The notes below the pieces were generated by a model. It searched no databases. It was not told the DNA's origin and saw only the letters and a program-made list of their open reading frames with translations. The position numbers and the translations under genes are program-made. A stretch of 64,000 bases of DNA from an uncultured Chitinophaga sp. (GTDB lineage: Bacteria; Bacteroidota; Bacteroidia; Bacteroidales; GCA-2748055). Below are positions 40,398-63,211 of this stretch, piece after piece (the first letter of the stretch is position 1; each line of letters starts with the position of its first letter). The stretch is taken from NCBI GenBank assembly GCA_964349045.1, contig CAYGFI010000005.1, positions 5,564 to 69,563 on the forward strand, given 5' to 3'.

Positions 40398-40430
40398 TCC
40401 TGGTTAATGTTTATTCAAAGTAAATTGATT

Positions 40431-41963: not shown

Positions 41964-41974
41964 TCTGCTAATAT

Positions 41975-43621: not shown

Positions 43622-43634
43622 ATTTTTACAAATC

Positions 43635-45155: not shown

Positions 45156-45271
45156 TTAATATATTTTTTAGCAGCCAGATGGAACAATTATTTTATAAAT
45201 TTCTTTCATAAAGTCGGTGTTCGAATAACATGTGGGTTTCATTTTTGCCATTCCTTAAAAGTTCACATTAA

Positions 45272-48200
45272 TTAAAATCCGATTGATGCTGTAAATGTTA
45301 CCATCCTTGACGGGGGAGTTCTGGCATTATCAACCCCGATCCAGAACGGGTCGGTAGCATCCTGGCTAACTTCCGGGTCCTGTCCTGAATAATTGGTAAA
45401 AGTCATCAGTTTACGTCCGCTTAATGCCAGAGTTAATGACCTAAGGTTCAGTTTATTGCATATCGACTGAGGGAGCCTGTATCCGATCATTACATTAAGC
45501 AGTCTCAGGTAATCTCCTTTCTCAACATACCGGTCAGACCCGAGATTGTTAGCCGGATTATACAAATATGCCCGCGGTAGCATAGCTTTTTCATCCTGCC
45601 CCTGGACTCTCCATCTTCGCAATACAGCTTTACTCTGATTATTCTTGTCATTCATTCCTTCAGTCGATATGGCTACTCCATTAATAATATCAAAACCGAG
45701 GCGATAATGAAAACCGCATGAAACCTCCCAGCTTTTATATTTAGCCGAGGTTCCGTAACCGCCAATAAAATCCGGATTGGAGTCCCCAATATAGACCACG
45801 TCATTCAGATCGATTTTGCCATCGTGATTTATATCCTGATACCTGGCATCACCACCTTTGAATTTATAAGTACCGAGGTAAGTCATGGGAATAGGTGAAC
45901 CATTGTTATCATAAAGAATGTTTCCATCAGCATCACGTGCCATGGCATCTGCATCGGTCGGATAAACACCTAAATACCTGAATCCGAAGAAGGAACCCAT
46001 GGCTTGTCCTTGTTCAACCCTTCGGGGATATTCACCGTTGCCAATGGATGTAGATTTTTCTACATTAAAATTATCAGGAAGCCTGGTAAATGTGTTGATG
46101 TTTTGCGAAGAGTTGAAATAAACGGACCACCTGAAATCCTTTTTGCGGATAAGTTTAATGTCAAACATCAATTCCCAACCCCTGTTTTCCAGTTCACCTC
46201 CATTAAGTAACAGGAGTTTGTCGAAGCCTGATGAACCTGGAATTGGGTAATCCTTAAATAGAAGGTTTGATGTAGTCTTTTTATAAAGATCACCTTCCAA
46301 ATACATACGGTCCTTAAACAAATTAAATTCTATGCCAAGGTCAGTAGAACTAATGCTTTCCCATTTGAGGTTATTCAACTGGATTTGAGTAGGGACAACG
46401 GCTGTCAGGTTCATATAACTACTGGGATAAGGAGAACCATAAGTGGCAAATCGTGCATAAGGTGAACCAGGTTGACGTCCGGCGGTTCCCCAACTGGCAC
46501 GCAGCATACTTTCACCCAGAAAGCTAAGACTTTTAAAAAAGTTTTCATCCGAAAACCTCCACCCAACTGCAACTCCCTTGAAAACACCCCAACGGTTATT
46601 TGCTCCAAATGACGAACTTGCATCTGCCCTTGCAATAGTTTGAAGCATATAGCGATCCTTAAATTTATAGTTTAAATTCATAAGGGCACCTAATTCCCTC
46701 GTTTCCTGGGAACCTGTACCGATCCATCCAATCTGAGGATTAACGGAAGGATCCTGGATATCCGTACTCGGTGACTTAAGACTCTGGACGTACTGGTATT
46801 CCCAACCACTCTGAATGGTAACCCAGGTAAGAGCGCCTGAAAATATATGGTCTTTAGATTTAAAAGGTGAATCAAAAGCAAGCTGTGTTTCGGTATTGAT
46901 GGCAGAAGAGAGACCGTTGTTTTCATCTGCCCTGTTGATCTCCCATTCCAGCCAATCAAGTCCGATTGCATTGTATGGCAGGAAAGAATTTGCCTTATTT
47001 CCTGTATATTGGAACGATACAGTTTCCCTGAAAGTAATCTTATCCAGGATTTTGTAACGCAGAATAAATGTGTTATTCAGGGAATTACTGAGAACATCAT
47101 TTTTTCCAAGATTAGCAACAGCAACAGGATTAAAATAATTAAATCCACTACCCTGGTAACTGTTAATCGGGTTGAAATATTCACCGGTAAGTTTTCCATC
47201 GGCATCATGCTCCCAGATGCTCATATTGGGAGCTTTGATATAGGCCATTTCACGAATGTTCATACCCTGTGGCCTGCTATATACTATATAATTACCATCG
47301 GTTCTATTATTGGTGTAATTAAACTGTACAGAAAATAAAAGATTCCTCGAAAGAAAATAGTCGAGGTTAACGCGTGTTGAAAATCGTTTTGAACTGGTAT
47401 TTATGGTAGTACCCCCTTCATCTACATAACTTAATGATGTGAAATACCTTGTTTTCTGCCCCCCTCCTGAGATATTAAAATAATGGTCATTAGTTACAGA
47501 ATTCTGGGTTATTGCGCCTATCCAGTCAGTATTAGCGGAGTAGTTGTAAAAATCAACATAATCTTTATCATAGGCAATTTCTGAGGGAACTTTAAAGACC
47601 CCGTAGTTATTATGCCATTCTTCAAGCTGAAGCATAATATACTCATCGCCATTCAACATTGGGATTGGCGGGGGCTGATAATTAATACTGGTTTTATAGG
47701 AGTAATCGAATTGCACTTTTCCAAGGCGTCCTTTAAATGTTTCAATAATCAATACCCCGTCTGCTCCCTTTGACCCGTAAACGGCAGTAGAGGCTGCATC
47801 CTTTAGTACTTCAATCGATTTAATGTCCTGTAAAGCAATATTGACAAGGTTGCCGATATCCTCCGCATCAGCTGAACTCAGATCAAAACTGCCAGGTACG
47901 GAAAATTGAGGAATACCGTCAACGACGATCAGTGGTTTGTTATTTCCCATGGAGCTAATTCCACGGATAACAATCTGTGCCCCGGATCCGGGATCACCGG
48001 AAGCGCTGATGATATCAAGTCCGCTGACCTTTCCCTGCAAGGCATCAGAAGCGGAAGATACGCCCATCTCTTTCATATCCAGCAAATCAACCTTAACAGA
48101 TGATGAAGCATTATCCCGCTCATCGATATTGGTAAGGCTGTGACTTGATTTCGCCTTGACAGCAATAACGACTTCCTCCAATTCGAAATTGGTTTCAGCT

Positions 48201-48502
48201 AAATCAATACTCATAGGTTGTGTCGGATCAGGTATCACCTCCTTAGTTTCATAACCGATAAGGCTGATTTTAAGGATGTTATTAATATTTTTCATTTCAA
48301 GAATGAAGTCTCCGTTCACATTACAAATAGTCCCGTTTATAATACGGTCCTCTTTATCATACTCAATAATGTTTGCACCAATAATACCAAGCTTGTTATT
48401 ATCGATAACCCTTCCCCTGATTATGACCTTTTGCTGTGCTATGGCTGTTACAAAACCAAATATTGCAATTATAAGCAGGATAGTTTTTTTGAATTCTTTC
48501 AT
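45272..48502 (-). CDS. SusC/RagA family TonB-dependent transporter
   Basis: Start taken at the internal ATG 48502 (MKEFKKTILLIIAIFGFVTAIAQQ), which avoids overlap with the upstream gene. Plug region is VIRGISSMGNNKPLIVVDGIP and the terminal residues are ...FTASIGF. Confidence 0.85.
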   Translation of the reverse strand: MKEFKKTILLIIAIFGFVTAIAQQKVIIRGRVIDNNKLGIIGANIIEYDKEDRIINGTICNVNGDFILEMKNINNILKISLIGYETKEVIPDPTQPMSIDLAETNFELEEVVIAVKAKSSHSLTNIDERDNASSSVKVDLLDMKEMGVSSASDALQGKVSGLDIISASGDPGSGAQIVIRGISSMGNNKPLIVVDGIPQFSVPGSFDLSSADAEDIGNLVNIALQDIKSIEVLKDAASTAVYGSKGADGVLIIETFKGRLGKVQFDYSYKTSINYQPPPIPMLNGDEYIMLQLEEWHNNYGVFKVPSEIAYDKDYVDFYNYSANTDWIGAITQNSVTNDHYFNISGGGQKTRYFTSLSYVDEGGTTINTSSKRFSTRVNLDYFLSRNLLFSVQFNYTNNRTDGNYIVYSRPQGMNIREMAYIKAPNMSIWEHDADGKLTGEYFNPINSYQGSGFNYFNPVAVANLGKNDVLSNSLNNTFILRYKILDKITFRETVSFQYTGNKANSFLPYNAIGLDWLEWEINRADENNGLSSAINTETQLAFDSPFKSKDHIFSGALTWVTIQSGWEYQYVQSLKSPSTDIQDPSVNPQIGWIGTGSQETRELGALMNLNYKFKDRYMLQTIARADASSSFGANNRWGVFKGVAVGWRFSDENFFKSLSFLGESMLRASWGTAGRQPGSPYARFATYGSPYPSSYMNLTAVVPTQIQLNNLKWESISSTDLGIEFNLFKDRMYLEGDLYKKTTSNLLFKDYPIPGSSGFDKLLLLNGGELENRGWELMFDIKLIRKKDFRWSVYFNSSQNINTFTRLPDNFNVEKSTSIGNGEYPRRVEQGQAMGSFFGFRYLGVYPTDADAMARDADGNILYDNNGSPIPMTYLGTYKFKGGDARYQDINHDGKIDLNDVVYIGDSNPDFIGGYGTSAKYKSWEVSCGFHYRLGFDIINGVAISTEGMNDKNNQSKAVLRRWRVQGQDEKAMLPRAYLYNPANNLGSDRYVEKGDYLRLLNVMIGYRLPQSICNKLNLRSLTLALSGRKLMTFTNYSGQDPEVSQDATDPFWIGVDNARTPPSRMVTFTASIGF

Positions 48503-48545
48503 TTCGTTCACAAATCTTAGTTTAATAATCAATTTATCGAACAAA

Positions 48546-50867
48546 CTATTGAGTATCCGATTCATTTACCAAAAGGACCTTGTCAATCTGGTGAATAACA
48601 GCGTTGGAAATGACATTGGGGAATACTTCCAGTCCCCCTACCCCCTCTGAAGTAACAAGTTTCCTTACCGTAATAATATTGGTATTGGGTGATTCAGGAA
48701 TAGCTATGTAATCTGAACCTGACAGACCCGGGATATTTATTTCATCAACACCGGGATTTATATATACCTTGGTGAAGATAGTTGTAAAGGGTGTGGATTT
48801 TTCATCAATCCTGGTAGTCTCATAATATTTTGCAGGCTTATTTCCGTCAGTAAAAATCATGTCTCCCTGTATAAAATGGAAAAGAAGAAATTGCTTAAGA
48901 TCCGGAACACTCATTGTATCTACCTGATATTCAGTTAAAGCTGCCACACTTGGTATAAATACGGTATAAAATTCATTGTCGGAAATGAATTTATAAGTGT
49001 AAAGTTTGTCGTTTGTCAAACCAGCTTTTTTAAGCAGATTGTGAAAATAAGGAAAGGAAGTTGAAATTTTCTGAAATAAATCAACAGATGCAAAATTGAA
49101 CCAGTTTGAAATATTATAGGTAATCCCGTTATCAGCATTTGTGCTTATTTGTTTGGGAAAAACATTTACTTGCTCTTCTCCGCTGTAACCTATAGTTGAA
49201 GGAGCCGTTCCGCTTACCTCACCTGTTTCGTTGTTAAAAATTAAAAAATTCCCGGCAAGATTTCGGATAAACTCTTTTTTCGCGATTCCATTTGGAATTT
49301 CTACACCTATATGATTAAGAATCAACCTACGTAGCTCATTTGTCGATAACGAAATTTCCTGAAACTGGTCCCCCGATGTCTGAAAAAGCGAAAACCGGTC
49401 ATTAATCGGATTATATATAAGGGAGGAATCAAACCGCAGGTTTAAATCCGATTCCGCATAAAGTAAATAATTATTAGATTCTTTTTTTAGTGCAGGCAAT
49501 AAGCCTGTTTTTTCAATGGCATACATAGCAATTGAATAACCCCGCTGAAGGTAAATAGGCCCGGTAATGCTCTTAAATGCCCGGGGAACTATCATTTTAT
49601 TTACGCCAATGAAACTGCAATTGCTTCCAAATTCCTTATGAATTATGGTCGAAGGATCAACATATATTATATCTTTCTCACCATTATAAAATCCTTTATA
49701 GAAATCAGAAGGATAAATTGCATTGTAAGACATTTGCGTATTTGCCATCATTCTTTTTATATGAAGAGGAGTCTCTTTTAATGACCCCCAATTATCGGGA
49801 CCGGCAATATATTCACTGATGAATGCATCAAATGCATCATTGGTAGGAGCTATCAACCCATGATGATAGCGGATAGAAACATTACCCGGTAATCCGACTG
49901 TCCCCAATGGAGCTTTTGTTTGCTCATTCGTAATGTTAAATGCCAGTTTTGGAAAGCTTATGTCAAAAAGGGAATCTACCGTATATCCAAGGTCTGCTCC
50001 TGGTTGTGCGATAGTTCTTTCCCGGTTATAAAGGAATTCCGGAAATATATCAACCAGGTCAAGGAACTTACTGTAAGAAATGTCATCATTCTTTGTGCTG
50101 AGAATCTGGTAAGCGTTTTTAAGTGGTTCAATCACCCTGTCAATTACATGGATAAACCCGTTTTCAGCAAAAATGTCACCGGTAATTATTTTCCCACTGA
50201 CAAAGTAAATATCATTCGGACTATCAAAAGGCCTTTCAAAATAGAAAGTAAAATCATTCGAGCTAAGATCGAAAATGTTAAAGTACTCATTGTAAAAAAC
50301 CGGTGCATATTTTCTGGAATCAGTTGCCTGTCGTCTGTACCAGTCAGTGAGAAGTGTGTCAACAATAGCAATCACCTTGTTTTCATTGACCTTAACCCCA
50401 TATTTCGGGTCCTTATCACGCAACAAAGTTTCCCTTTTAAAACCTTTGGGCTTGTCGTTATTTATGTCAGTTGAATCGATCCATCCATGCACATCCAGGG
50501 ATCTGAGCTGGAGTTTACTCCAGGGATTCTGCACAATATGAAATTTAACAATACGGTTTAATTCGTCAGGTGGAATATCTGTAACAGAGTTATATCCGGG
50601 ATGAGACTGCAAATATAGTGTAAAGGCATCATTGTCCGGGGCAAATACAGTATAACTCCCTGAAGTATTAATAATAGTGTCATAACCGGTTATTTCCAGG
50701 CACCGGGCAAACTGAGAAAGTTCAGGACGAGACTTAATCTGGATAAACAACTTTCCTGCGAGCCAGTCAGGACGGGCATATTTGTCAGAAAGTTCAAGGT
50801 CTTCTTTGCAACTGATAATGCTTGCAAACAACAATGCAAGAAACAATAATTTTTTGATTCGAATCAT
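48546..50867 (-). CDS. Multi-FAS1 (about four fasciclin domains) lipoprotein, first gene of the string
   Basis: 773 aa with lipobox ASIISCKED. Repeated FAS1 marks are YTVFAPDNDAFTLY, LIAPTNDAFDAF, YTVFIPSVAAL and NAVIHQIDKVLL. Confidence 0.65.
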   Translation of the reverse strand: MIRIKKLLFLALLFASIISCKEDLELSDKYARPDWLAGKLFIQIKSRPELSQFARCLEITGYDTIINTSGSYTVFAPDNDAFTLYLQSHPGYNSVTDIPPDELNRIVKFHIVQNPWSKLQLRSLDVHGWIDSTDINNDKPKGFKRETLLRDKDPKYGVKVNENKVIAIVDTLLTDWYRRQATDSRKYAPVFYNEYFNIFDLSSNDFTFYFERPFDSPNDIYFVSGKIITGDIFAENGFIHVIDRVIEPLKNAYQILSTKNDDISYSKFLDLVDIFPEFLYNRERTIAQPGADLGYTVDSLFDISFPKLAFNITNEQTKAPLGTVGLPGNVSIRYHHGLIAPTNDAFDAFISEYIAGPDNWGSLKETPLHIKRMMANTQMSYNAIYPSDFYKGFYNGEKDIIYVDPSTIIHKEFGSNCSFIGVNKMIVPRAFKSITGPIYLQRGYSIAMYAIEKTGLLPALKKESNNYLLYAESDLNLRFDSSLIYNPINDRFSLFQTSGDQFQEISLSTNELRRLILNHIGVEIPNGIAKKEFIRNLAGNFLIFNNETGEVSGTAPSTIGYSGEEQVNVFPKQISTNADNGITYNISNWFNFASVDLFQKISTSFPYFHNLLKKAGLTNDKLYTYKFISDNEFYTVFIPSVAALTEYQVDTMSVPDLKQFLLFHFIQGDMIFTDGNKPAKYYETTRIDEKSTPFTTIFTKVYINPGVDEINIPGLSGSDYIAIPESPNTNIITVRKLVTSEGVGGLEVFPNVISNAVIHQIDKVLLVNESDTQ

Positions 50868-51541: not shown

Positions 51542-52444
51542 ATGGAAGATTTCTTCAAATACCTTACTCCCGGTGAAGAAGATATTGGTTGGGGACTTTA
51601 CCTGAATGTTGTAGGTAAAACCATTATTCCGCCAGGACTGATTTATCCCAGTATCGATCACCCCAGCGGTTATTTTTTCACTTGGGACAAGGGACGGGTT
51701 CTTCATGAATACCAGATCGTATATATTTCAGAAGGCGATGGGATCTTTGAAGATGAAACCGGCGAATTCCCTATTAAAGCAGGATCGCTACTAATTCTGC
51801 AGCCTGGAAGATGGCATCGGTATAAACCGGACCCGGGTAAAGGATGGACAGAAAGTTATGTTGGATTTAATGGTCTTTCGGCAAATTTAATGTTTACCAA
51901 TCCTCAACTTACTCTTATAAAACCCGTTGTCCATATTGGTAACCGTGAGGAATTCATTGACACGTATTATAAAATATTCAGATTTGCACAAGCTGAAAAG
52001 CCTGGATTCCAACAGATTACTGCAGGTATGGTAATGAAACTCCTGGGATATCTTATTTCAATTGAAAAAAGACTTGATTTCTCGGAGAAAAGAATCGAGA
52101 AAATCATAGAAAAAGCATGTTTTCTCATAAGAGAAAATATTGAAAAGGAAATTGATTTTAAACAGTATGCAGATGAGAACTGTGTAGCATATTCCTATTT
52201 CAGAAGAATGTTTAAAATGTATACCGGATTACCCCCGGCTAAATATCATCTTGACCTTAAGATCATCAGGAGCCGTGAATTATTGCTTTCAACTGATAAA
52301 ATAATCAAGGAAATCTGCAATGAAGTTGGATTTGAATCAACTTATTATTTCAGCAGACTATTTAAAAAAAAAACAGGTATTTCTCCTTCCCTCTTCAGAA
52401 CTTCGGCCAATAATCAAAAAGGGCAGAAAAAAATTATTCGGTGA
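51542..52444 (+). CDS. AraC family transcriptional regulator (N-terminal cupin-like sensor, C-terminal double HTH)
   Basis: 300 aa. The C-terminus (YFRRMFKMYTGLPPAKYHLDLKI...ICNEVGFESTYYFSRLFKKKTGISPSLFR) is the AraC/XylS HTH signature. Confidence 0.85.
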   Translation: MEDFFKYLTPGEEDIGWGLYLNVVGKTIIPPGLIYPSIDHPSGYFFTWDKGRVLHEYQIVYISEGDGIFEDETGEFPIKAGSLLILQPGRWHRYKPDPGKGWTESYVGFNGLSANLMFTNPQLTLIKPVVHIGNREEFIDTYYKIFRFAQAEKPGFQQITAGMVMKLLGYLISIEKRLDFSEKRIEKIIEKACFLIRENIEKEIDFKQYADENCVAYSYFRRMFKMYTGLPPAKYHLDLKIIRSRELLLSTDKIIKEICNEVGFESTYYFSRLFKKKTGISPSLFRTSANNQKGQKKIIR

Positions 52445-52450
52445 TTTCCG

Positions 52451-52910
52451 TTATTTAGTCATTTTGTGCAAACTTTGGTTCACTTTGTTCATTTAACTTG
52501 ACCTTAACGTATCCTAATTTTACCTGTTCTAAGGATTACGTTAAGATGTAAATGAAAATAAATATATAAAAATCATTATCTGTATATATTCCCATAATAA
52601 TGTTAAAATAGTGTATGATCTGGGTAATCTGCTCGAACAATCATATTAAAATGTTTGTTTATTTTGGATAATCATTTAATATGTAATGGCATAAAAGAAT
52701 AAATACATTTTCACTTTTTGTTTGGTATGTAATAATTTCATATCCTTGCTTAAAATTTCTTTGATAATTGTAATTAATTGATTTGCAGTTTAAAATATAT
52801 TTATTAGGTGAACTAATAATTTCATAGCATGTTTTTTTATTTGGATTTTGTTTTTAGCTGTTTTAATATTGTTTATCCTTAAATATTTTACTAATCCTAA
52901 ACTGATAATT
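52451..52910 (+). repeat. Right arm of the mirror-image paralogous upstream region (upstream of the LTD/T9SS protein gene)
   Basis: Colinear with the reverse complement of 50868-51300. It also contains an arm-specific hairpin, CTTAACGTATCCT ... AGGATTACGTTAAG, at about 52503-52546. Confidence 0.8.
52458..52495 (+). promoter_or_regulatory. Candidate AraC-family operator: two direct repeats with 21-bp phasing
   Basis: GTCATTTTGT lies at 52458-52467 and TTCACTTTGT at 52479-52488, followed by TCATTT. The sequence is homologous to 51256-51293. Confidence 0.45.
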
Positions 52911-55900
52911 ATGAAGACAAAACTACTATTGATTGTTCTTCTTATGGTTGCCGGGATTCTGAATGCCCAGGATACCATAAGAACTCTTGTGATTACGGAG
53001 TACAGGGGTGATGATTCACGTCAAAACTTCGTTGAAATCAGCAATGTTGGTACAACAACATTAAACCTTGCTAATTTTCAGATTGGAACCGTTTCTCCCT
53101 GGAGTACTCCGATAGAAAGAGGCAATCTGCGAAAAGCATGGAATTTAATAGGGAATACACCCTGGCCATTTACAGTAGTGCTTCGGTTGCCGGAAAAAAA
53201 TCTTGCTCCCGGTAAATCTTTTACTATCGGTCCATTGTACGACTGGAACCCTGAAGCATTTAACAGGGGAGACCCAAGAGGCATCCGGGTCATGAACAAA
53301 AAGGAATGGTGGACCCTTGCAGACATTCAGGCCCATTTTCCTGAAAACCCGAAGCAGCCAGACCCTACAGATAGTGCAAATATCTGGCACCGTCTGATTG
53401 ATCAGTGGGGCGGCGCTTATGGTATATACCTCGCACAGTATCTTTCACCAACCGACTCTGTTGTAATTGATTTGGTGAATGTTTATGAATGGGATGCCGA
53501 TGGCACAAGAGATGAGAGTCCTCATGATGTGGCAGGTGTTACCCATGCTACAAGAACTGCTACACTTATTCGCAAGTTCAGCGTGAAGAAAGGGAATCTT
53601 GATTTTCTGAAAGCAGCCGGACTTGATTATACCGACTCCGAATGGATACCCATTCCCCATCTTACCGGCGGCTGGGAACCTCATCGGTCCTTGTTCTGGA
53701 CTGCTGGTAACCATGGAGATTATAATTTGGACGAAGCAACACTTACCTCAAATACTGTTGATATAAACTGGACCAACCATGTTCTTACGGTTCCCTGGGG
53801 TGTAAGGAGAGACGATTCACTTATGTACCAGTTTAACCGTAAACCCGGTTTAGCTTGGCATTTTGATTATGCCCCGTCATCTGTCGATTCTGCATTCTAT
53901 TCTCTCAGAACCGGTGATGCCATGACTATTTATGCCTGTGGAAATGATGTGGATATTATTAAATTTGATATTGTTGTTTCTCCTCCTACAGCTGGTGAAA
54001 ACAGGGTTGTACCTAAAAAGATGGGAAATTTACATGGATATTTCTCCCTTGGTCCACCCAGCTGGGTAGTAACTGATAAGGTTCCCGGCATGGATACCAT
54101 TCAGGAGATTCCCTTTGGAATCCGGTCGGATACCCTGCTCAAATATCTCGAAAAAGCTCCCGAAGCAAACTGGGAATTCGAATGGGTTGACGGTAATGTC
54201 AGGACAGATCTACAGACCGGTGATATCCTGAAAGTTACAGCCAAGAATGCAAGCGTAAAGAGATACTATATTAAGCCAAATAAAATCCAGAAAAGCCATA
54301 ATGCTAACCTGGCCTCTATCACCTGGCCTGATATTCCTGAATTCTATAAAGGTCTCTATGGGTGGGTTGGTGATACTATTCCAACTTTCGCGACCAGCAA
54401 AACCGAATACATTCTCCAGGTTCCCCTCGATGTAACTGGTATACCTGCTTTGGTTGGGAAAACACAGAATATCAATGCACAACTTGAGGTTGACAGGGCT
54501 AAAAATTTAACCGGATCTAATGCAGACAAAACGGTTACATTTACAGTTACGGCCCAGGATGATACCACTATAATGGTATACAAGGTTCAGCTCGAAAAAG
54601 AAAAAGACCTATCCAATATTCAACCCTGGGTGGGAAAACCATTTATTTCACAATTTGTCTGGATGAATGATTTCCGCAATACTTTTCTTGAAGTAGTAAA
54701 TCCGGGAACCGAACCTCTTGATTTAAGTAATTATATGATCGTTTCCGGGTATGCTGCCAATCCGGCTGACGCCATCAGACAAGCCGCAGGAACCGGTGAT
54801 TTTGCCGAAAGGTATAGAAAATATATCCCAGGCTATAAATGGGTACCGGAAGCTGATTGGGCAACAAAACCAGGCATCGCTCAACCGGATGTAAATATTG
54901 ATCCGATTGTTCAGGCTGGAGATGTCTTTGTTTTGGCTCAAATTTACTGGGATAGTCCGGATGGAAGCGCTCCTACTTTCATAAAGCCTCAGGTTGATCT
55001 TGATTTAGCGAATAACCCATGGGATGAACCATTAGCACAGTGGTCATCTCTTGAAATGTGGTTTGGAAAAGTCTATTTATTCGAAATCCTGAACGATTCT
55101 GTTAAAACAGGAAAAAAACCTGCAACAGATCCGAATGATTTTGAACTTCTTGACTGCTTTGCCGATAATGCCGGACAATGGAATGTTGGAGGTATTCCTG
55201 CAGGTCAAACCTTTGGTTATACCAGAAAGCCGGAAGTTTATCTAGGCAATCCTGTTATTGGAGGCTCATTTGGTACAACAGAAGAGAATAGTGAATGGGT
55301 AATGCTTAATGAAGCCCGGCTGCAGGCAAAAGGTTACCCCTGGCCAAACTGGAGAGCCTATACCTGTGAAGGTATTGGTTCTCACTTCATGAAGGCTTAT
55401 ACCGGCTATATGTCCATTGTTGGATCAAATGCCTACAAAGTTTCTGAAGGTTACACCAATGCAGAGACCATCAGAGGGATCGTAACCGGAACCACTGTAT
55501 CAGATTTTCTTGCTGCTTTATCAAAAGTAGATGAAGGTCAAACCCTGACAGTAAAAAGAGCTGGTGTTGCTGTTCTATCAACTTCTGCACTTGTAAATGG
55601 AGATGTTCTTGAAGTGGTTTCCGCTGACGCAGTTAATACAACCAAATACACTCTTGAAGTTACTGCCGGTGGTTTACCCGATAACGCGGTTCTTACTTCA
55701 ACTCAATATACAATTGCAATTACGGGTGCAACCGGAACAATATCAGGTTTTGATTATAGTGTACCCTTAAGGACAATTGTTGAAAATGTTGTAGTTCCTG
55801 ATGGTGCAACATTCAATGTTATAGACGGAAACAATGCATACGTGCCCCTTATGATCCTGAATTATGATACCATTTTGGTGGCTGTCCGGGTAAATTCCAA

Positions 55901-56735
55901 TACATATTTTGAAGTAATAGCTGAAAACGGAACTACCAAGATTGTTTACCAGCTGATACCAAACATGATGAACAGCGGTGCATTTGTAACCTCCAATGTT
56001 TTTACTGTAAACCATTCGGCTTCACTCATATCTGATGTTCCTGATGGTGCCGGAGTATATGGTTTTATGAAGTATATTATACCTGCTCCAGGTGCAACAG
56101 TTAAACTGATTGATAAACTTGGTTATGAAAGGACCATGGGTAATATCTATGTAGACGACCGGATTTTAGTTACTTCTGAAGATGGTCTGACAACCAAGAT
56201 ATATTATCTGAAGGTTTTACGTGAAATATCCAATTACCTTGCATATGTATTATCCGATATCTATGCTGTTGATCAGATAGGGTATACAATTACAGGTGAT
56301 TTCAGTGTTGCAACCACTGTAAGCAGCTTCCTCGCAAACCTTATCCCCGCTGAAGGAGCTACAATGAAGGTAACAAACGCTGCTGGTGTTCAACAAACCG
56401 GCAACATGGCGGTTGGTAATTTACTTGTTGTTTCTGCAGGTGATGGTATTACCACGGTAACCTATTCACTTGAAGTTGGAACAAGTGTACGCAATATCAA
56501 CGCTGGTTCAATAAATGTTTATCCAAACCCGAGTAACGGAATGATCTATGTCTCCGGCCTCGAAACAGGACACAGGGTAGCCGTTACCAATATGCTGGGT
56601 CAGAGATTGATTGACAGGGAAGTTAAACAGAACATCGAAATGTTCAACCTGGAAGGTCAGTCTGGCGGAGTTTATTTCATAACTGTTAATAACGGAAACC
56701 AGGTTGTAGGTCGCTACAAACTGATTCTGCAATAA
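52911..56735 (+). CDS. Large T9SS-secreted protein with two lamin-tail-domain-like modules, a cadherin-like beta-sandwich and repeated ~75-aa modules; C-terminal T9SS sorting domain
   Basis: Start taken at ATG 52911 (MKTKLLLIVLLMVAGILNAQ). LTD-like segments are LVITEYRGDDSRQNFVEISNVGTTTLNLANFQI and NTFLEVVNPGTEPLDLSNYMIV. The CTD is INVYPNPSNGMIYV...GGVYFITVNN...YKLILQ. Confidence 0.6.
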   Translation: MKTKLLLIVLLMVAGILNAQDTIRTLVITEYRGDDSRQNFVEISNVGTTTLNLANFQIGTVSPWSTPIERGNLRKAWNLIGNTPWPFTVVLRLPEKNLAPGKSFTIGPLYDWNPEAFNRGDPRGIRVMNKKEWWTLADIQAHFPENPKQPDPTDSANIWHRLIDQWGGAYGIYLAQYLSPTDSVVIDLVNVYEWDADGTRDESPHDVAGVTHATRTATLIRKFSVKKGNLDFLKAAGLDYTDSEWIPIPHLTGGWEPHRSLFWTAGNHGDYNLDEATLTSNTVDINWTNHVLTVPWGVRRDDSLMYQFNRKPGLAWHFDYAPSSVDSAFYSLRTGDAMTIYACGNDVDIIKFDIVVSPPTAGENRVVPKKMGNLHGYFSLGPPSWVVTDKVPGMDTIQEIPFGIRSDTLLKYLEKAPEANWEFEWVDGNVRTDLQTGDILKVTAKNASVKRYYIKPNKIQKSHNANLASITWPDIPEFYKGLYGWVGDTIPTFATSKTEYILQVPLDVTGIPALVGKTQNINAQLEVDRAKNLTGSNADKTVTFTVTAQDDTTIMVYKVQLEKEKDLSNIQPWVGKPFISQFVWMNDFRNTFLEVVNPGTEPLDLSNYMIVSGYAANPADAIRQAAGTGDFAERYRKYIPGYKWVPEADWATKPGIAQPDVNIDPIVQAGDVFVLAQIYWDSPDGSAPTFIKPQVDLDLANNPWDEPLAQWSSLEMWFGKVYLFEILNDSVKTGKKPATDPNDFELLDCFADNAGQWNVGGIPAGQTFGYTRKPEVYLGNPVIGGSFGTTEENSEWVMLNEARLQAKGYPWPNWRAYTCEGIGSHFMKAYTGYMSIVGSNAYKVSEGYTNAETIRGIVTGTTVSDFLAALSKVDEGQTLTVKRAGVAVLSTSALVNGDVLEVVSADAVNTTKYTLEVTAGGLPDNAVLTSTQYTIAITGATGTISGFDYSVPLRTIVENVVVPDGATFNVIDGNNAYVPLMILNYDTILVAVRVNSNTYFEVIAENGTTKIVYQLIPNMMNSGAFVTSNVFTVNHSASLISDVPDGAGVYGFMKYIIPAPGATVKLIDKLGYERTMGNIYVDDRILVTSEDGLTTKIYYLKVLREISNYLAYVLSDIYAVDQIGYTITGDFSVATTVSSFLANLIPAEGATMKVTNAAGVQQTGNMAVGNLLVVSAGDGITTVTYSLEVGTSVRNINAGSINVYPNPSNGMIYVSGLETGHRVAVTNMLGQRLIDREVKQNIEMFNLEGQSGGVYFITVNNGNQVVGRYKLILQ

Positions 56736-56752
56736 CATTTTTCTAAACTAAA

Positions 56753-56792
56753 AAAGAGGCTGTCTCTGCATGGAGACGGCCTCTTTCTTTTT
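56753..56792 (+). terminator. Rho-independent terminator after the LTD/T9SS protein gene
   Basis: Stem AAGAGGCTGTCTC / GAGACGGCCTCTT with one mismatch and loop TGCATG, followed by TCTTTTT. Confidence 0.6.
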
Positions 56793-56898
56793 GAATGCTT
56801 TGCAGATTTTGTTTTTACAATTCACCTGCACATCAATACCTACCCGAAAATATATCCCTGCAGGAATTGGTAAATAAAAATTTAAAACAGATATAAAA

Positions 56899-59001
56899 AT
56901 GGGATCGGTCATTTCACGAACATTTCGATTTTCTCTTTTATTCCTGATCCTGGTCAGTGCCATTCTTATGGTAACCTCAGGTCAGAATATGCCTGTCCAA
57001 AAAACAGAAGGAGAAATAATTCTGACACAAAACTCTCCATTGGTTGGCGCCATTCGATGGGATGGATGGGTTGGAAACAAAGGATCCTGGCAAATAGGTC
57101 CAATAGTGGAACGCACACTGGGGCCTTCTAAATTTCACTACAGGGCGCCCTTTTTTAGCATTGTAACCGGCAAGGACTCCATTTCAATTGACGGCACAAC
57201 CCAGGAAATCATGGATAAGGAGATTGTCTTTGCAACGGAGGCAGGTATTGATTACTGGGCATACTGCTGGTATCCCGATGGATGTGGATTGGAATTAGCC
57301 CGAAAATTGCACCAGACCAGTATACTTGCCAACGATGTAAAGTGGTGTGTAATTTTAGGAACCTTCGAGGTAAATGTATTAAATAATTATGGTGCCTCTC
57401 TGGTTAATGATTTTGCCCGTGAAAACTATCAGAAGGTATTAGGTGGCCGCCCATTAATTTACCTGTATAGCAGCGATTTAACCAGGGCAGGCCTGGATAA
57501 GTTAAGAGCAATGACTATTGCAAAAAATTTAAAAACACCTTATGTTGTAGTAATGGCATGGGATGCAGCTTCAGCGGCAGACTATTGTCAGGTCATCGGT
57601 GCCGATGCAATAAGCAGCTATGCTGCCCTGGGAAATAATAATCGTCCTTTTACTGAAGTAATTCCCCCCCAAAGTAAGGCAAATTGGGAAAAATTTGCTG
57701 CAAAAAAAGAAGTTGTTCCCTGGGTTTGCACAGGATGGAATGCTAAACCCCGTATGGAAAGCGAAAATCCATGGAGTTCTTACTATTCGGATGCAACAAA
57801 CTGCCAGGATGCGACCGCAAATGATATAAAAGATTTTTTGCTATCAGCAATTGATTGGACAGTTTCTCACAGGAGTAAGGTTGTTGCAAATACCCTGATC
57901 ATGTATGCCTGGAATGAACACGATGAAGGCTATGGTGCAATTTGTCCTACACTTGGAACAGACGGGATGCCAGATACCGAAAGACTCGATTCGGTTAGAG
58001 TGGCACTTCAGGGAAGAATGAAAGATACCATCATAATCAGGTCGTTTCAACTGAATGTTGTGGTAAAAGATGTTGAATTGAATAGTCCAATAAGTGATGC
58101 AAGGGTAATGATTAATAAGGATACCGTGATTTCTGATCAGGAAGGAATCTCTTATTACAACAGTGTACCTGAAAATTTTGTTTTGAGTATTGAAAATGAC
58201 AAATATCTGCCTGTTACCAGAAGATCTATCTCTGTAAATAGTGATACAACTCTCATCTTTTATCTTATTCAACGCGGTTTTAATGTATCCCTCACCCTGA
58301 TGGATAATAAAACTCATGAACCATTCTGGGGTGCCCGTGTAACTGTTGATTCAAATACTCAGGTAACAGATGGATCCGGCCAGGTATTATTTTCTCTGAG
58401 GAGTGGCACCTATGAGTATACCATAAATAAAATTTCCTATCAGGTTGAAACCGGAAATATCTCTATTACTTCAGATACCAGTATAATCTTCTACCTGACT
58501 CAAACCCATGCTGAGGCCAAATTCCGGTTGTATGACGGCCTGACGCCCCTGAATAACGCAATCATAAAGGTAAATAGTGATTCTCTTTTGACAAACGCTA
58601 TTGGAATAGCGCTGTTTAAACTACTCCCGCTGAATTATTTATATTCGTATTCTATCATAAAAGAAGGTTATAATAGTAATTATGGAGAGTTTTTTCTGAG
58701 TAAAGATACATTGATTGACATTTCTGCGGAAAGAAATAACCTGGGTTCTGAACTTTTATTAAACCCACACAATATGAAATTATGGCCCAATCCGGCGTCC
58801 GGATTCCTTCACTGCTCCTTTCCTACAAGGTTTTTAAACAGTACTTTCATAATTACTGATATGGCTGGAAATGAAATTTATTCAGTTGTATTGAATGAGA
58901 CAGAATTTAGTTTAAGTCTGAGGGATTTCCATTCGGGCACGTATTTCCTTCGGGTAATCTCAGATTATAATTATACAGGTATTCTTATTATCAGTAAATG
59001 A
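56899..59001 (+). CDS. T9SS-secreted putative glycoside hydrolase: GH99-like-superfamily catalytic domain, three CarboxypepD_reg-like repeats and a T9SS C-terminal sorting domain
   Basis: 700 aa. Residues ~45-370 are a close paralog of the 62132-63211 product. Three ~75-aa repeats each end in ...SDT.LIFYL. The CTD is LWPNPASGFLHC...SGTYFLRVIS. Confidence 0.55.
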   Translation: MGSVISRTFRFSLLFLILVSAILMVTSGQNMPVQKTEGEIILTQNSPLVGAIRWDGWVGNKGSWQIGPIVERTLGPSKFHYRAPFFSIVTGKDSISIDGTTQEIMDKEIVFATEAGIDYWAYCWYPDGCGLELARKLHQTSILANDVKWCVILGTFEVNVLNNYGASLVNDFARENYQKVLGGRPLIYLYSSDLTRAGLDKLRAMTIAKNLKTPYVVVMAWDAASAADYCQVIGADAISSYAALGNNNRPFTEVIPPQSKANWEKFAAKKEVVPWVCTGWNAKPRMESENPWSSYYSDATNCQDATANDIKDFLLSAIDWTVSHRSKVVANTLIMYAWNEHDEGYGAICPTLGTDGMPDTERLDSVRVALQGRMKDTIIIRSFQLNVVVKDVELNSPISDARVMINKDTVISDQEGISYYNSVPENFVLSIENDKYLPVTRRSISVNSDTTLIFYLIQRGFNVSLTLMDNKTHEPFWGARVTVDSNTQVTDGSGQVLFSLRSGTYEYTINKISYQVETGNISITSDTSIIFYLTQTHAEAKFRLYDGLTPLNNAIIKVNSDSLLTNAIGIALFKLLPLNYLYSYSIIKEGYNSNYGEFFLSKDTLIDISAERNNLGSELLLNPHNMKLWPNPASGFLHCSFPTRFLNSTFIITDMAGNEIYSVVLNETEFSLSLRDFHSGTYFLRVISDYNYTGILIISK

Positions 59002-59415: not shown

Positions 59416-60816
59416 ATGATGATTAAATCTTGCTTAAATCTAAATCGAAGTACATCAGCTTTAATCCTGTTCTCAGGGCTTTCATTATCAGGATGCGTCA
59501 AAGAGGATCCGTTAAAACCCAATTTTTTGATCATCCTTACAGATGATTTAACCTACCGTGCCCTGGGCTATAATAATGAACTGGTAAAAACACCTAATCT
59601 TGATAAGCTTGCCCGCCAGGGTATCATTTTTGACCGCGCTTATATTTCCACACCAGTATGTGCTGCAAGCAGGGCAAGTATGTTAACCGGACTTTATCCG
59701 CAGACAAATGGCACTGTGGCCTTAGATACAAAGTCATTTATCAAAAATATTGTTCAGGAAAAAAGGTTCAAAACATTACCCCAGGTTCTGAATGAAGCTG
59801 GTTATAAAAGTTATTTTAGCGGGAAGTCTCATTTAGGAGATCCCAAAGATTACGGATTTCATTTCGGAAAAGAAACTCCTGATTATGATGATAAAACAGC
59901 ATTTGAGGATGTATACGGATTTATCGATTCACCAGAATTCGGACAAAAACCATTTTTACTATGGCTTGCTGTAAGGCAACCCCATGTGCCACTTAAGCCG
60001 GAAGAGAAATGGCTTAAACTTTATTCAGAAACAAATTTCCCCATAGAAAAGAATTTTTTGAAGGAACCTCCTTCAGAAAGTTTTTATAACCAGGGCCTTC
60101 CTGGTGAAAATTTCTACCGGGATTCTGATTACACTGATAATTATAAAAATTTACCGGCCGGCCCTCCACGACCTGTTGAAGTCATCCGTGAATTTACCAA
60201 AGCGTACTACGCTACAATAAGTCATCTCGACTTTCAGATTGGTGAATTAATTGATCAGCTTCAATCCAAAAACCTGTTCGAAAATACAGTATTGATTTTT
60301 TTATCCGATAATGGGTATTTTTTAGGGAACCATGGTCTAGGCAACAAATTAACCATGCACGAAGAGTCAGTCCGTGTTCCGATGTTTATTTATTGGGATA
60401 AACTCCCTAAAACCAATATTCACTCGGATGCACTTGTCTCGAGCGTGGATGTATTTCCTACCATTCTTGACCTGGCTGGAATAGATATACCTGATTATCT
60501 TCAGGGGATTTCATTAAAGCCCTTGCTTGCAAATCCCTCGATGCAACTGAATGAATATGTTGCCAGTGAAAGTGTTGGAGTAGGAGGAGAATTGGGTTTA
60601 GGGCACAGAATGATCGTGAAGGATAAATGGAAATATATTCTGTCGGATACGGGAGACGAGGCACTTTTTTATTTAGAGGATGATCTTTATGAAATTGACA
60701 ACCTGATAGATGACATACAACACCAGGGGGAGGTCTTTAAATTAAAAGCTTTTTTGATAGATTGGAAAAACAAAACCGGAGACAATAAAGATATTCCTGT
60801 CGGAATGCCCAAATAA
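59416..60816 (+). CDS. Sulfatase (formylglycine-dependent, Cys-type) lipoprotein
   Basis: 466 aa with lipobox LSLSGCVKED. It has LIILTDDL and the active-site signature PVCAASRASMLTG (C-x-A-x-R variant). Confidence 0.8.
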   Translation: MMIKSCLNLNRSTSALILFSGLSLSGCVKEDPLKPNFLIILTDDLTYRALGYNNELVKTPNLDKLARQGIIFDRAYISTPVCAASRASMLTGLYPQTNGTVALDTKSFIKNIVQEKRFKTLPQVLNEAGYKSYFSGKSHLGDPKDYGFHFGKETPDYDDKTAFEDVYGFIDSPEFGQKPFLLWLAVRQPHVPLKPEEKWLKLYSETNFPIEKNFLKEPPSESFYNQGLPGENFYRDSDYTDNYKNLPAGPPRPVEVIREFTKAYYATISHLDFQIGELIDQLQSKNLFENTVLIFLSDNGYFLGNHGLGNKLTMHEESVRVPMFIYWDKLPKTNIHSDALVSSVDVFPTILDLAGIDIPDYLQGISLKPLLANPSMQLNEYVASESVGVGGELGLGHRMIVKDKWKYILSDTGDEALFYLEDDLYEIDNLIDDIQHQGEVFKLKAFLIDWKNKTGDNKDIPVGMPK

Positions 60817-60884
60817 CAAAAAAGCGTACAATATATTTCAATATTATTGTATGCTTTAATATTTTTACATTAAATACTTACATT

Positions 60885-62114
60885 ATGAAATCGCAACTAT
60901 TGACTTTCGCATTTTTAACCCTTCTTGTATCCTGCAAACCTGGCAAAAAAGTCAATCAGGAGCCGGATAAAATCACTGTTGCCTCTTACTATTTTCCCAA
61001 CTACCATATCAGGGGGGGCGACCATCTCCCTATCAGCAAACAAGCAGTTCTTGATAATAAGTCAGAGTGGGAATTAGTAAAAAATGCAAAGCCACGCTTT
61101 GAGGGCCATCAGCAGCCAAAAGTTCCGGCATGGGGTTACACCGATGAAAAAGATCCTGCTGTAATGGCAATGAAAATTGAAGCTGCTTCCGAATATGGAG
61201 TCGATGTTTTTATTTTTGACTGGTACAACTACAACGGCCAGCCATTTTTAAACCAGTGTCTTGACGAGGGATTCCTGAAAGCTGAAAATACAGACAAGTT
61301 GAAGTTTGCCCTGATGTGGGCCAACCATGACTGGAAAGATCTTTTCCCCTGTAATGAAGGCAACCTTGGTGAACTGCCGGTAATGTATGAAGGAATGGTT
61401 GCAGCTGATGCTTTTGATAAGCTTGGAAATGAAATTATCCGCGACTATTTTACAAAACCAAACTACTGGTTAATTGATGGTAAACCCTATTTTTCCATTT
61501 ATGACGTAACAGAATTTATTGAAGGATTTGGAAGTATGGAGGCTGCAAAAGAAGCAATGGAAAACATGAACGAAAAAGCTATTGCAGCAGGGCTTAAGGG
61601 GATTCACTGGAACCTTGTTGCCTGGGGCAATCCAATATTACCCGGACAAAAAGTACCTTCAAGTATTCCGGAGCTCATTACAAAACTCGGTTTTAATTCT
61701 GCTACTTCTTATGTATGGATTCATCATGTTCAGTTACCTGAGGTGCAAAACGATTATAATACTGCACGGGAAAAATATTTTACCCATTGGGATAAAGCAA
61801 AAGAAGAATATGGAGTACCCTACTTCCCGAATGTTTCCATGGGATGGGATTCTTCTCCCCGTACAAACCAGGAAATGGGATGGAAACATACATCGGGATA
61901 TCCTTACACAGGGATACTGGTAAATAATACACCTGAAAACTTCAAAGAAGCACTACAACTGACAAAAGCCAGATTGCTTTCAGACCCTGATGGTCCGCGC
62001 ATATTTAACATCAACTGCTGGAATGAATGGACCGAGGGAAGCTACCTTGAACCAGATACTATTAACGGTATGGCATATTTAGAATCTATTAAGGAAGTAT
62101 TTAAAAGCAATTGA
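60885..62114 (+). CDS. GH99-like domain (WbsX-family) protein, lipoprotein
   Basis: 409 aa with lipobox LLVSCKPG. Family marks are VASYYFPNYH...SEWELVKNAKPRFEGHQQPKVP...GVDVFIFDWYNY...INCWNEWTEGSYLEPD. Confidence 0.6.
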   Translation: MKSQLLTFAFLTLLVSCKPGKKVNQEPDKITVASYYFPNYHIRGGDHLPISKQAVLDNKSEWELVKNAKPRFEGHQQPKVPAWGYTDEKDPAVMAMKIEAASEYGVDVFIFDWYNYNGQPFLNQCLDEGFLKAENTDKLKFALMWANHDWKDLFPCNEGNLGELPVMYEGMVAADAFDKLGNEIIRDYFTKPNYWLIDGKPYFSIYDVTEFIEGFGSMEAAKEAMENMNEKAIAAGLKGIHWNLVAWGNPILPGQKVPSSIPELITKLGFNSATSYVWIHHVQLPEVQNDYNTAREKYFTHWDKAKEEYGVPYFPNVSMGWDSSPRTNQEMGWKHTSGYPYTGILVNNTPENFKEALQLTKARLLSDPDGPRIFNINCWNEWTEGSYLEPDTINGMAYLESIKEVFKSN

Positions 62115-62131
62115 TTATTAATCAGATCAAT

Positions 62132-63211
62132 ATGGAAAATATTAAAGACAAAATCCTCTTGCTGTTTGCTTTTACTGTCTTGTCATATGGCACAGGATGC
62201 AACCATGCAACAAAGGAACCTGAAAAAATTATTGTTGGTGCAATTCGCTGGGATGGCTGGGTTGGGGAAAAAGGTTCATGGCAGATTGGCCCGATTCTGG
62301 AACGAACAATGGGACCGGAGAGATTTCATTACAGGGCGCCATTTTTCAGTAAAGTTCTTGGAAAAGATTCCATTTCAATAGATGGAACCAGCCAGGAAAT
62401 TATGGATATGGAAATTGCCTACGCAAAAGATGCCGGGATTGATTACTGGGCCTATTGTTATTATCCCGATGGTTGTGGACTTGAACTTGCCAGGAAACTT
62501 CACCAGACAAGTAACTATTCAAATGATATAAACTGGTGTGCCATTTTAGGGGCTTCAATCGCTGCTGATTCAACCATGGATTATAGTAAAAGTCTGGTAT
62601 CTGATTTCGCAAAGGAGAACTATCAGAAAGTGTCAGATGGGCGACCCTTGATTTATTTACTTCATGGAAGTAACATAAGCAGGGCTGAAATCGACCAGCT
62701 GCGGACAATGTGTATTGAAAGCAATCTGAAAAATCCTTACGTTGTGGCAATGGAATGGAGTGCTGATCTCGCTTCAGAATATTGTGATAAATTAGGAGCC
62801 GATGCCATCAGTTGTTATGCCACGCTGGGAAAAGACACCAGACCTTTCGCAGAAATAATTCCACCCCAAAGTTTAATACTCTGGGAATCCTATGCAACAA
62901 AAAAGGCAGTGGTTCCATGGGTTAGCACCGGTTGGAATGCAAAACCCCGGATGGATAGTCCAAACCCATGGACTAAATATTATGCTGATTCAACAAATTG
63001 CCAGGACGCGACTCCTGAAGATATCAGGAACTTTCTGCATACAGCAATAAAATGGACCCAATCGAACCGAAATGCTACCGTTGCAAACACTATTCTCATG
63101 TATGCCTGGAATGAACATGATGAAGGCTACGGGGCTATTTGTCCGACACTTGGGAAAGATGGAAAGCCAAACACCGAAAGACTTAATGCGGTTAAGGACG
63201 CACTGAAATAA
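62132..63211 (+). CDS. Lipoprotein paralog of the 56899 catalytic domain (distant GH99-like superfamily, putative glycoside hydrolase)
   Basis: The ORF track starts at TTG 62111, overlapping the upstream stop; ATG 62132 gives MENIKDKILLLFAFTVLSYGTGCNH, a lipoprotein signal. By eye about two-thirds of residues are identical to the 56899 protein over ~330 aa (IRWDGWVG.KGSWQIGP, GIDYWAYC.YPDGCGLELARKLHQTS, MYAWNEHDEGYGAICPTLG). Confidence 0.55.
   Translation: MENIKDKILLLFAFTVLSYGTGCNHATKEPEKIIVGAIRWDGWVGEKGSWQIGPILERTMGPERFHYRAPFFSKVLGKDSISIDGTSQEIMDMEIAYAKDAGIDYWAYCYYPDGCGLELARKLHQTSNYSNDINWCAILGASIAADSTMDYSKSLVSDFAKENYQKVSDGRPLIYLLHGSNISRAEIDQLRTMCIESNLKNPYVVAMEWSADLASEYCDKLGADAISCYATLGKDTRPFAEIIPPQSLILWESYATKKAVVPWVSTGWNAKPRMDSPNPWTKYYADSTNCQDATPEDIRNFLHTAIKWTQSNRNATVANTILMYAWNEHDEGYGAICPTLGKDGKPNTERLNAVKDALK

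Follow-up and report, generated by a model that had tools for sequence, protein, structure and literature searches.

The gene at positions 52911-56735 (plus strand) of the window, a stretch of 64,000 nucleotides of contig CAYGFI010000005.1 from an uncultured Chitinophaga sp., is an open reading frame (ORF) that runs from an ATG at 52911 to a stop at 56735 and encodes a protein of 1,274 residues. We found that this protein holds two homologous, duplicated and enlarged modules with a lamin-tail domain (LTD) fold, of about 265 residues each, and that it belongs to a large, conserved and uncharacterised family with a fixed architecture, rather than being a one-off protein. An ORF finder had proposed a longer form, starting at a TTG at 52848, which is unsupported. 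The ATG at 52911 was preferred because a database protein (P0001) is identical to the ORF product and of equal length, and because the family alignment, made of 106 full-length homologs, begins at this Met. The features of the gene are listed below; Ig stands for immunoglobulin, pLDDT for the predicted local distance difference test and T9SS for the type IX secretion system.

52911-52967 (+): signal peptide, residues 1-19, read from the sequence, with predicted cleavage between LNA and QD
52968-53756 (+): N1, enlarged lamin-tail-fold module 1, residues 20-282 (Pfam LTD match at residues 23-106; Foldseek; model pLDDT 91)
53757-53981 (+): Ra, divergent Ig-like repeat, residues 283-357 (match to Rb; phmmer with Rb finds residues 293-342; beta strands and one helix in the model)
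54063-54284 (+): Rb, Ig-like repeat, residues 385-458 (hhalign E 3e-14 with R3, 5e-12 with R4, 5e-7 with R1)
54294-54608 (+): cadherin-like beta-sandwich, residues 462-566 (PF12733, E 0.061), carrying the motif ITWPDIPE.YKG..GW.GDTIP.F
54633-55421 (+): N2, enlarged lamin-tail-fold module 2, residues 575-837 (Pfam LTD match when searched alone; homology to N1; model pLDDT 92)
55422-55670 (+): R1, Ig-like repeat, residues 838-920 (match to R4: BLASTP E 1.3e-8, hhalign E 2.8e-14)
55686-55970 (+): R2, Ig-like repeat with an insertion, residues 926-1020 (hhalign E 7e-11 with R4 and 4e-9 with R3; weak single-sequence signal)
55986-56225 (+): R3, Ig-like repeat, residues 1026-1105 (match to R4: BLASTP E 1.6e-11, hhalign E 4e-29)
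56247-56486 (+): R4, Ig-like repeat, residues 1113-1192 (matches to the other repeats; weak PF12733 match, E 0.071)
56517-56732 (+): T9SS type A C-terminal sorting domain (CTD), residues 1203-1274 (PF18962 and TIGR04183, both above their cut-offs)
56753-56796 (+): hairpin resembling an intrinsic terminator, 18 nt after the stop, with a 15-bp stem and a 4-nt TGCA loop, followed by CTTTTTG

Two enlarged lamin-tail modules

A first description of the gene, made from the sequence alone (the original prediction), had placed two LTD-like domains in the protein. Both segments are supported, but each belongs to a module that is much larger than a usual LTD, and one module is a duplicate of the other. 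With the Pfam LTD profile (PF00932), the whole protein scored 33.3 bits over two stretches, 1 bit short of the gathering cut-off of 34.3 bits. N1 alone (residues 20-290) was matched at an E value of 6.9e-5 and N2 alone (residues 566-840) at 0.039, and for the family as a whole the assignment is firm, as the profile matched all of the 38 homologs scanned at E ≤ 0.01 (best E 5.6e-11). When profiles built from the sub-alignments of these two segments were compared with hhalign, the homology of N1 and N2 extended across 226 columns (probability 96%, E 5.8e-9). Their common positions are the core motifs of the LTD (ITE...YvEI.N.G...l.LS.F, pG.sFVia, D..viD.vgG, RK..v..GN..F and SEWi), which large insertions spread over about 225 residues, giving a module of about 265 residues instead of a compact LTD of about 110.

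AlphaFold2 models were built for each half of the protein, each with the 106-sequence alignment, and both were of high confidence. The model of the N-terminal half (residues 20-575) had a pLDDT of 91.3 and a predicted template modelling (TM) score of 0.82, and that of the C-terminal half (residues 566-1200) values of 91.9 and 0.71. A Foldseek search of the PDB with the N-terminal half gave matches with a probability of 1.00 to the Ig domains of the lamin A/C and lamin B tails (1ifr, 6ghd_F, 3umn, 7crg_B and 1ufg; target-normalised TM scores of 0.43-0.58). Given where the Pfam match lies, and given the 50 or so gap columns of the alignment, we infer that the lamin-tail match falls on N1. The same search also retrieved BT_1938, a DUF4876 protein (4q1z), the remainder being strings of cadherin and Ig domains.

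Several acidic and His residues are invariant or nearly so in the family alignment, namely E30, E42, D138, D154, D182, D187, D206 and H268 in N1, and E594, D671, D696, D729, D743 and H825 in N2. A search of 1.84 billion cluster representatives with the N1 profile retrieved 1,353 proteins at E ≤ 1e-3, which mostly had the same length as the query and two matched stretches. Five longer proteins showed other architectures. All five were T9SS cargo without a catalytic domain, and the module stood in them beside Laminin_G_3, LRR, PKD, CUB, SprB or HYDIN-type Ig domains.

Ig-like repeats and the cadherin-like domain

A BLAST comparison of the whole protein with itself yielded only the identity match, and the repeats emerged after segmentation and with the use of family profiles. 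As single sequences, R1, R3 and R4 matched each other at E values of 1e-7 to 1e-11 (the R1-R4 and R3-R4 values are listed above). With family profiles, Rb, R1, R2, R3 and R4 were linked by hhalign at E values of 3e-5 to 4e-29; R1 and R2 were not linked directly and were joined through R3 and R4. Ra was linked to Rb at E 2.1e-6. Searches of Pfam with single repeats gave no significant match. Each repeat is predicted to be a small sandwich of about six strands and one helix. The repeat family of about 75 residues that had been proposed is thus supported both by BLASTP and by hhalign, but the "at least four" copies have become six, and they are Ig-like beta-sandwiches. A weaker copy noted earlier in the protein (IQEIPFG...RYYI) corresponds to Rb.

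The cadherin-like stretch that had been described between the LTD segments is a beta-sandwich in the model. In this protein its match to PF12733 is weak (14.2 bits, E 0.061) and below the gathering cut-off of 24.2 bits, but 16 of the 38 homologs were matched at E ≤ 0.01 (best E 3.3e-5), so that the family as a whole probably belongs to PF12733, even though this sequence fails the cut-off. The domain was also weakly related to R2 and R3 (hhalign E 1e-4). Conservation was highest in this central part of the protein. Rb is the most conserved domain, with 34% of its columns at least 90% conserved, as compared with 30% for the cadherin-like domain, where W472, W485 and F493 are among the conserved positions. 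The aromatic-rich motif of the cadherin-like domain, given in the list above, is the most conserved stretch of all.

Taken over both halves, the Foldseek matches were restricted to folds of the Ig, cadherin and lamin-tail types, to Ig arrays of S-layers and to surface glycan-binding proteins (SGBPs) of polysaccharide utilisation loci (PULs). The C-terminal half matched only strings of Ig-like domains, including the S-layer arrays of Bacillus anthracis Sap (6qx4) and Geobacillus SbsC (4uj6). The SGBPs retrieved were a protein of the levan utilisome (8aa2_G, with the C-terminal half) and the mixed-linkage glucan (MLG) SGBP-B (6e57).

Export signals and the search for a catalytic domain

The N terminus reads as a typical signal peptide, MKTKLLLIVLLMVAGILNA followed by QD, as judged directly by eye. 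Throughout the family alignment A19 was invariant and Q20 almost so, and the peptide is probably cleaved before Q20. No Cys occurs near this site, which therefore has no lipobox, and a T9SS CTD is present instead. As had been predicted, the protein carries the sorting domain of a type A T9SS cargo: it scored 38.2 bits with PF18962 over residues 1203-1271 (cut-off 27) and 38.3 bits with TIGR04183 within residues 1203-1274 (cut-off 23). The CTD was matched in all of the 38 homologs, and a sequence-profile search of the PDB matched the solved CTDs 8glj_D and 8glk_D.

Searches of Pfam, of NCBIfam, of the PDB by sequence profile (which retrieved only the CTDs) and of the PDB by Foldseek disclosed no catalytic domain in the protein, nor did Pfam reveal an enzyme domain in the 38 homologs. 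This agrees with the original prediction, which had noted no catalytic signature, and these sequence and fold searches found no known catalytic domain in the central region either. We also considered a lytic polysaccharide monooxygenase (LPMO) and rejected this idea, since the predicted mature N terminus is a Gln and not the His required for an LPMO-type copper site.

Distribution of the family

A word-indexed search retrieved 683 relatives, more than 100 of which were full-length (1,260-1,310 residues), at 45-78% identity. All of them are named either "hypothetical" or "T9SS type A sorting domain-containing protein". When a single genome of each species was scanned, 224 relatives were obtained, and 77 loci were kept. 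These belong to Prolixibacteraceae (Mariniphaga, Draconibacterium, Tangfeifania and Maribellus) and to metagenome-assembled genomes (MAGs) of other Bacteroidales. Two cultured strains, Mariniphaga anaerophila DSM 26910 and Tangfeifania diversioriginum DSM 27063, are carriers. The family is expanded, as seen at loci L029, L043, L051, L069 and L075 and in multi-copy genomes: several genomes, such as MFD01721.bin.1.367 and Mariniphaga 30dZY2.bin.126, contain three or four paralogs, some of them in tandem. We found no description of the family in the literature when LTD was searched together with T9SS, PUL or glycoside hydrolase (GH), when fasciclin was searched together with SusD, or when cellulose PULs of Prolixibacteraceae were searched.

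Transcription unit and terminator

The gene had been described as the first of an operon, which now appears doubtful. The hairpin at 56753-56796 has a folding energy of -25.1 kcal/mol (z -4.64 as compared with shuffled sequences) and is followed by a run of T. Using as a criterion a simple hairpin of -9 kcal/mol or lower, followed by at least 5 T in 8 nt and lying within 110 nt of the stop, we found such a site after 83 of 84 family genes, as compared with 68 of 631 other genes (11%) in the same loci; this count covered the loci other than the window's own contig (L001) and the duplicate locus (L020). The site was present even where a co-directional GH5 gene started only 65-100 nt later.

The sequence of the stem (AAGAGCCTG...CAGGCTCTT) is often conserved from genus to genus, with compensatory variants in other members, even though identity between the proteins is only about 45%. 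In the first 82 loci, totalling 1.59 Mb (the 77 species-representative loci and 5 metagenome or MAG contigs, one of them the window's own), the pattern GAG[CG]CTG-N2-12-CAG[CG]CTC occurred 38 times, in all 38 cases after a family gene. We rejected the idea that the stem is exclusive to the family, as the longer pattern AAGAGCCTG-N3-9-CAGGCTCTT was found at at least 120 metagenome loci, none of them beside a family gene among the matches listed. By our estimate, the number of these matches is about what chance predicts for a collection of that size. No Rfam match was found in positions 52400-57000 of the window.

The intergenic region upstream of the gene is unusually long and AT-rich. It measures 466 bp here (52445-52910) and has a median length of 434 bp in the 77 loci of the family. 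A k-mer search upstream of the 77 family genes disclosed no strong shared motif, the TAnnTTTG promoter motif was not found in the 466-bp gap of the window, and a scan for sigma-70 promoters stayed at background level. Because of the terminator hairpin after the gene and the long gap before it, the gene looks like a terminator-bounded transcription unit of its own, placed before the enzyme genes, and not like the first cistron of a simple operon; read-through would be possible.

Gene neighbourhood

In the window, the gene is divergent from a minus-strand string (35123-50867) in the order fasciclin - SusC - SusD - fasciclin - fasciclin - SusC - SusD, and it does not directly follow susC or susD. 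A gene for an AraC-type regulator (51542-52444, plus strand) lies between the string and the 466-bp gap. Downstream are genes for a 700-residue T9SS protein, a sulfatase and two PF14307 (WbsX-like) proteins, the latter three within 59416-63211 (plus strand), and beyond the window the same contig carries GH106 (alpha-L-rhamnosidase family) and rhaM genes (L001, 20391-23821). The sulfatase, PF14307, GH106 and rhaM genes suggest a sulfated, rhamnose-containing glycan. A sulfatase is the next gene in five loci of the family, which makes the downstream set of the window a minority variant. Variants similar to it, with the sulfatase first, were seen at L016, L023, L044 and L072.

The neighbours in other loci were labelled by phmmer comparison with a handful of Pfam-annotated reference proteins, using a coverage filter, and downstream genes were counted in the 64 loci from species-representative genomes for which 2 kb or more of sequence was present downstream. 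The next gene was a GH5 gene in 28 of these 64 loci. Among the next four co-directional genes, we found GH5 in 33, GH44 in 12 and a GH26-like or carbohydrate-binding module (CBM) 35-like gene in 27, and at least one of these three types in 41. Scanning 41 unlabelled downstream genes, together with that of the 700-residue protein of the window, against Pfam disclosed Sortilin/BNR (GH74-like) domains in 7, as well as GH31, GH20, GH9, GH10, GH5 and apiosidase domains; 8 of these 42 proteins had a CTD. In the homolog loci on long contigs (P0024, P0096 and others), the divergent fasciclin-SusC-SusD-fasciclin arrangement recurs, and the downstream genes encode GH5 with CBM6, GH44, GH5 and GH26 with CBM35, several with CTDs. 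SusC/D genes occurred within 10 kb in 26 of 76 loci. The gene directly upstream varied: of the 56 loci in which sufficient upstream sequence was present, it was secA in 13, a fasciclin gene in 9 and a gene for a hybrid two-component regulator in 6. The stable partner of the family is therefore the set of co-directional genes for secreted plant-cell-wall glycanases downstream, and not the fasciclin/SusCD string, with which the original prediction had the gene share its regulation. The paralogs adjoin differing enzyme sets (GH74-like, GH31, GH9, GH10, GH20 or apiosidase), and the presence of several paralogs per genome, each beside a different set, fits with substrate-specific accessories.

Some other features of the window deserve mention. 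The 700-residue T9SS cargo protein encoded directly downstream (56899-59001, plus strand) has a CarboxypepD_reg domain and a CTD. Its N-terminal 460 residues or so matched no Pfam family and had no relative in the PDB by sequence, and only its C-terminal part recurs beside family genes (L009, L023 and L056). The three fasciclin-domain proteins (525-773 residues; 40431-43714 and 48546-50867, minus strand) flank SusC and SusD at positions where surface glycan-binding lipoproteins usually sit. The order fasciclin-SusC-SusD-fasciclin-fasciclin recurs in many homolog loci, and we found almost no literature tying fasciclin domains to PULs. Overlaps of about 80-100 nt at TTG or ATG starts were seen between the ORFs 41975-43714 and 43635-45155 and between 37071-40397 and 35123-37177 (all minus strand); these fasciclin and SusC genes probably start further downstream than the mechanically called ORFs suggest. 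The region 22456-37177, which adjoins the locus studied here, contains two more SusC/SusD pairs, a GH26 gene (32598-33707), and genes for a GlcNAc 2-epimerase-family protein (33792-35066), an amidohydrolase, an isomerase-like protein and a class II aldolase. It looks like a mannan-type utilisation region.

Proposed function and alternatives

We propose, at about even chances, that the protein is a surface-anchored, non-catalytic accessory of T9SS glycanase systems that acts in glycan binding or adhesion. The role in surface substrate capture or as a scaffold that had been put forward by the original prediction is compatible with all our findings. Our analysis establishes the modular architecture, the sorting signal, the lack of detectable catalytic domains, the existence of the family, the neighbourhood of the gene and the terminator. 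With respect to the surface anchoring, the glycan binding, the choice of the binding modules and the expression pattern that we infer, the following course of events may be envisaged. The protein would be exported by Sec and, by analogy with other type A cargo, would probably be cleaved and attached to the cell surface. Its body, predicted to consist of beta-sandwich modules only (two LTD, one cadherin-like and six Ig-like), would hold a polymeric or insoluble plant-type polysaccharide, or a cell-wall particle, at the cell surface, and the protein would thereby serve as an accessory to the adjoining secreted endo-glycanases and to the nearby SusC/SusD importer. The neighbouring enzymes would cut the bound polysaccharide, which the SusC/D-fasciclin unit would import. 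The enlarged LTD modules and the highly conserved centre formed by Rb and the cadherin-like domain are the candidate binding parts, and the four C-terminal Ig-like repeats may form a stalk beside the anchor. The gene would be transcribed as its own unit, ended by the strong terminator.

Several observations weigh against this proposal. No recognised CBM family was detected in the protein, and the many invariant Asp, Glu and His residues of the N modules may mark an active site or a metal site rather than a binding face. About one third of the loci have no labelled glycanase within four genes, and the "GH26/CBM35-like" label includes partial matches, which may correspond to non-catalytic parts only. 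Furthermore, the downstream set found in the window itself (the 700-residue T9SS protein, the sulfatase, the two PF14307 proteins, GH106 and rhaM) is atypical for the family.

Alternatively, the protein could be a scaffold organising the adjoining T9SS glycanases (GH5-CBM6, GH44, GH26-CBM35) through protein contacts, in the manner of a cellulosome but without cohesin and dockerin. The tight and repeated adjacency to multi-modular T9SS enzymes would suit such a role, as would the many Ig-like repeats, which could be docking sites, and the separate, terminator-bounded unit, as would be expected if the protein were produced in amounts unlike those of the enzymes. However, no cohesin-like or dockerin-like domain was found in the Pfam scans of the protein and its 38 homologs, the sets of partner enzymes vary among paralogs and no common partner module was identified. 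Besides, T9SS type A cargo is anchored individually, which makes a scaffold unneeded. We consider this explanation unlikely.

We regard as quite unlikely that the protein is a general surface-coat protein or adhesin (S-layer-like, or serving gliding or attachment) with no specific role towards glycans, its adjacency to glycanases being an accident of lineage. A coat protein would account for the Foldseek matches to the S-layer Ig arrays of Sap and SbsC, for the monocistronic gene with a strong terminator, which is typical of abundant structural proteins, and for secA, an unrelated housekeeping gene, as the upstream neighbour in 13 of 56 loci. Yet the link with glycanases holds across genera and across paralogs with different enzyme sets, and several paralogs per genome are unexpected for a single coat protein.

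Finally, it is likewise quite unlikely that the LTD insertions form, from the invariant acidic and His residues, the active site of a new carbohydrate-active enzyme. These many residues in N1 and N2, a gene position among glycanase genes that would suit an enzyme and about 150 residues of insertion per module without fold assignment would speak for it. Against it, neither the sequence nor the fold of the protein resembles a catalytic family, its core has the build of an Ig-like sandwich and not that of a known glycosidase or lyase scaffold, the predicted mature N terminus is not the His of an LPMO, and the module is accompanied by adhesion domains only in the five other architectures.

A more far-reaching reading can also be formulated. 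It states that the protein is an essential and hitherto unrecognised non-catalytic part of T9SS-dependent plant-cell-wall degradation in Prolixibacteraceae and related Bacteroidales, acting as a surface capture device or organiser, that the enlarged LTD is a new class of CBM, and that the paralogs are specialised for different glycans (mannan or glucomannan, xyloglucan, cellulose, xylan, sulfated rhamnan), each being made in excess of the enzymes from a separate, terminator-bounded gene. This we find doubtful.

Significance

It is still poorly understood how insoluble plant polysaccharides are attacked by T9SS-reliant Bacteroidota; the models available so far are the SusCDEF systems, which are based on lipoproteins, and the unusual system of Cytophaga. 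With its conserved, enzyme-free body of 1,270-1,300 residues and a gene directly before GH5, GH44, GH26, GH74-like, GH9 or GH10 genes, the surface protein is a concrete candidate for a missing binding or organising component. Such loci occur in many anaerobic Bacteroidales from sediments and digesters. If the enlarged LTD modules or the cadherin-like modules do bind glycans, they would represent a new type of CBM and would also offer a simple marker with which to recognise, in genomes, those T9SS-linked glycan-degrading loci that are "unknown" to current PUL predictors. The role is testable in the two cultured hosts, M. anaerophila DSM 26910 and T. diversioriginum DSM 27063. All domain types and the secretion route were already known. 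What is new is the fixed architecture, the enlarged and duplicated LTD, the family-wide placement before T9SS glycanase genes and the near-universal terminator. Nothing that we found contradicts current understanding, and the family provides a testable candidate for an accessory factor.

Comparison with known systems

The protein shares with bacterial LTD proteins (PF00932) the LTD beta-sandwich fold, family-wide profile matches and a secreted or surface location. It differs from them by the size of the LTD, which is about 110 residues in these proteins and is enlarged here to about 225-265 residues by insertions, and by its duplication. Bacterial LTDs are typically fused to extracellular nucleases, phosphoesterases or CotH kinases, whereas here the LTD is fused to no catalytic domain. 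As to PF12733 proteins, the central domain and, weakly, R4 match this family, and the six repeats are distantly related to that central domain, but the match is below the curated cut-off and the repeats are shorter (about 75 residues) and contain a helix.

The T9SS cellulases and hemicellulases of uncultured Bacteroidota (Ca. Paraporphyromonas polyenzymogenes; PMC5831590) use the same secretion route as the protein described here, and, like the neighbours of its gene, they comprise T9SS-linked GH5, GH26 and other plant-cell-wall glycanases. In these multi-modular enzymes some regions are unannotated and termed "hypothetical", and one such region bound Avicel (PMC5831590). They contain GH domains, whereas the present protein has none, and the paper makes no mention of LTD or fasciclin domains (PMC5831590).

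The SGBPs of PULs (SusE/SusF-like proteins, Bacteroides ovatus MLG SGBP-B, the levan utilisome protein and CHU_1279 of Cytophaga hutchinsonii) resemble the protein in being non-catalytic surface proteins made of tandem Ig-like or CBM-like beta-sandwiches, in being encoded beside SusC/SusD and glycanases, and in their Foldseek matches, which are weak. However, they are lipoproteins encoded just after susD, whereas the present protein has a signal of the signal peptidase I type and a T9SS CTD, is about three times larger and contains two enlarged LTD modules, and its gene lies upstream of the enzyme genes in a transcription unit of its own. No sequence homology between SGBPs and the protein was detected. 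Because it has no lipobox, uses the T9SS and shows no detectable sequence homology, the protein is not a member of the SGBP class. Its closest functional precedents are nevertheless these PUL lipoproteins and CHU_1279, a non-catalytic cellulose-binding protein that is required for growth of C. hutchinsonii on cellulose (PMC12016534).

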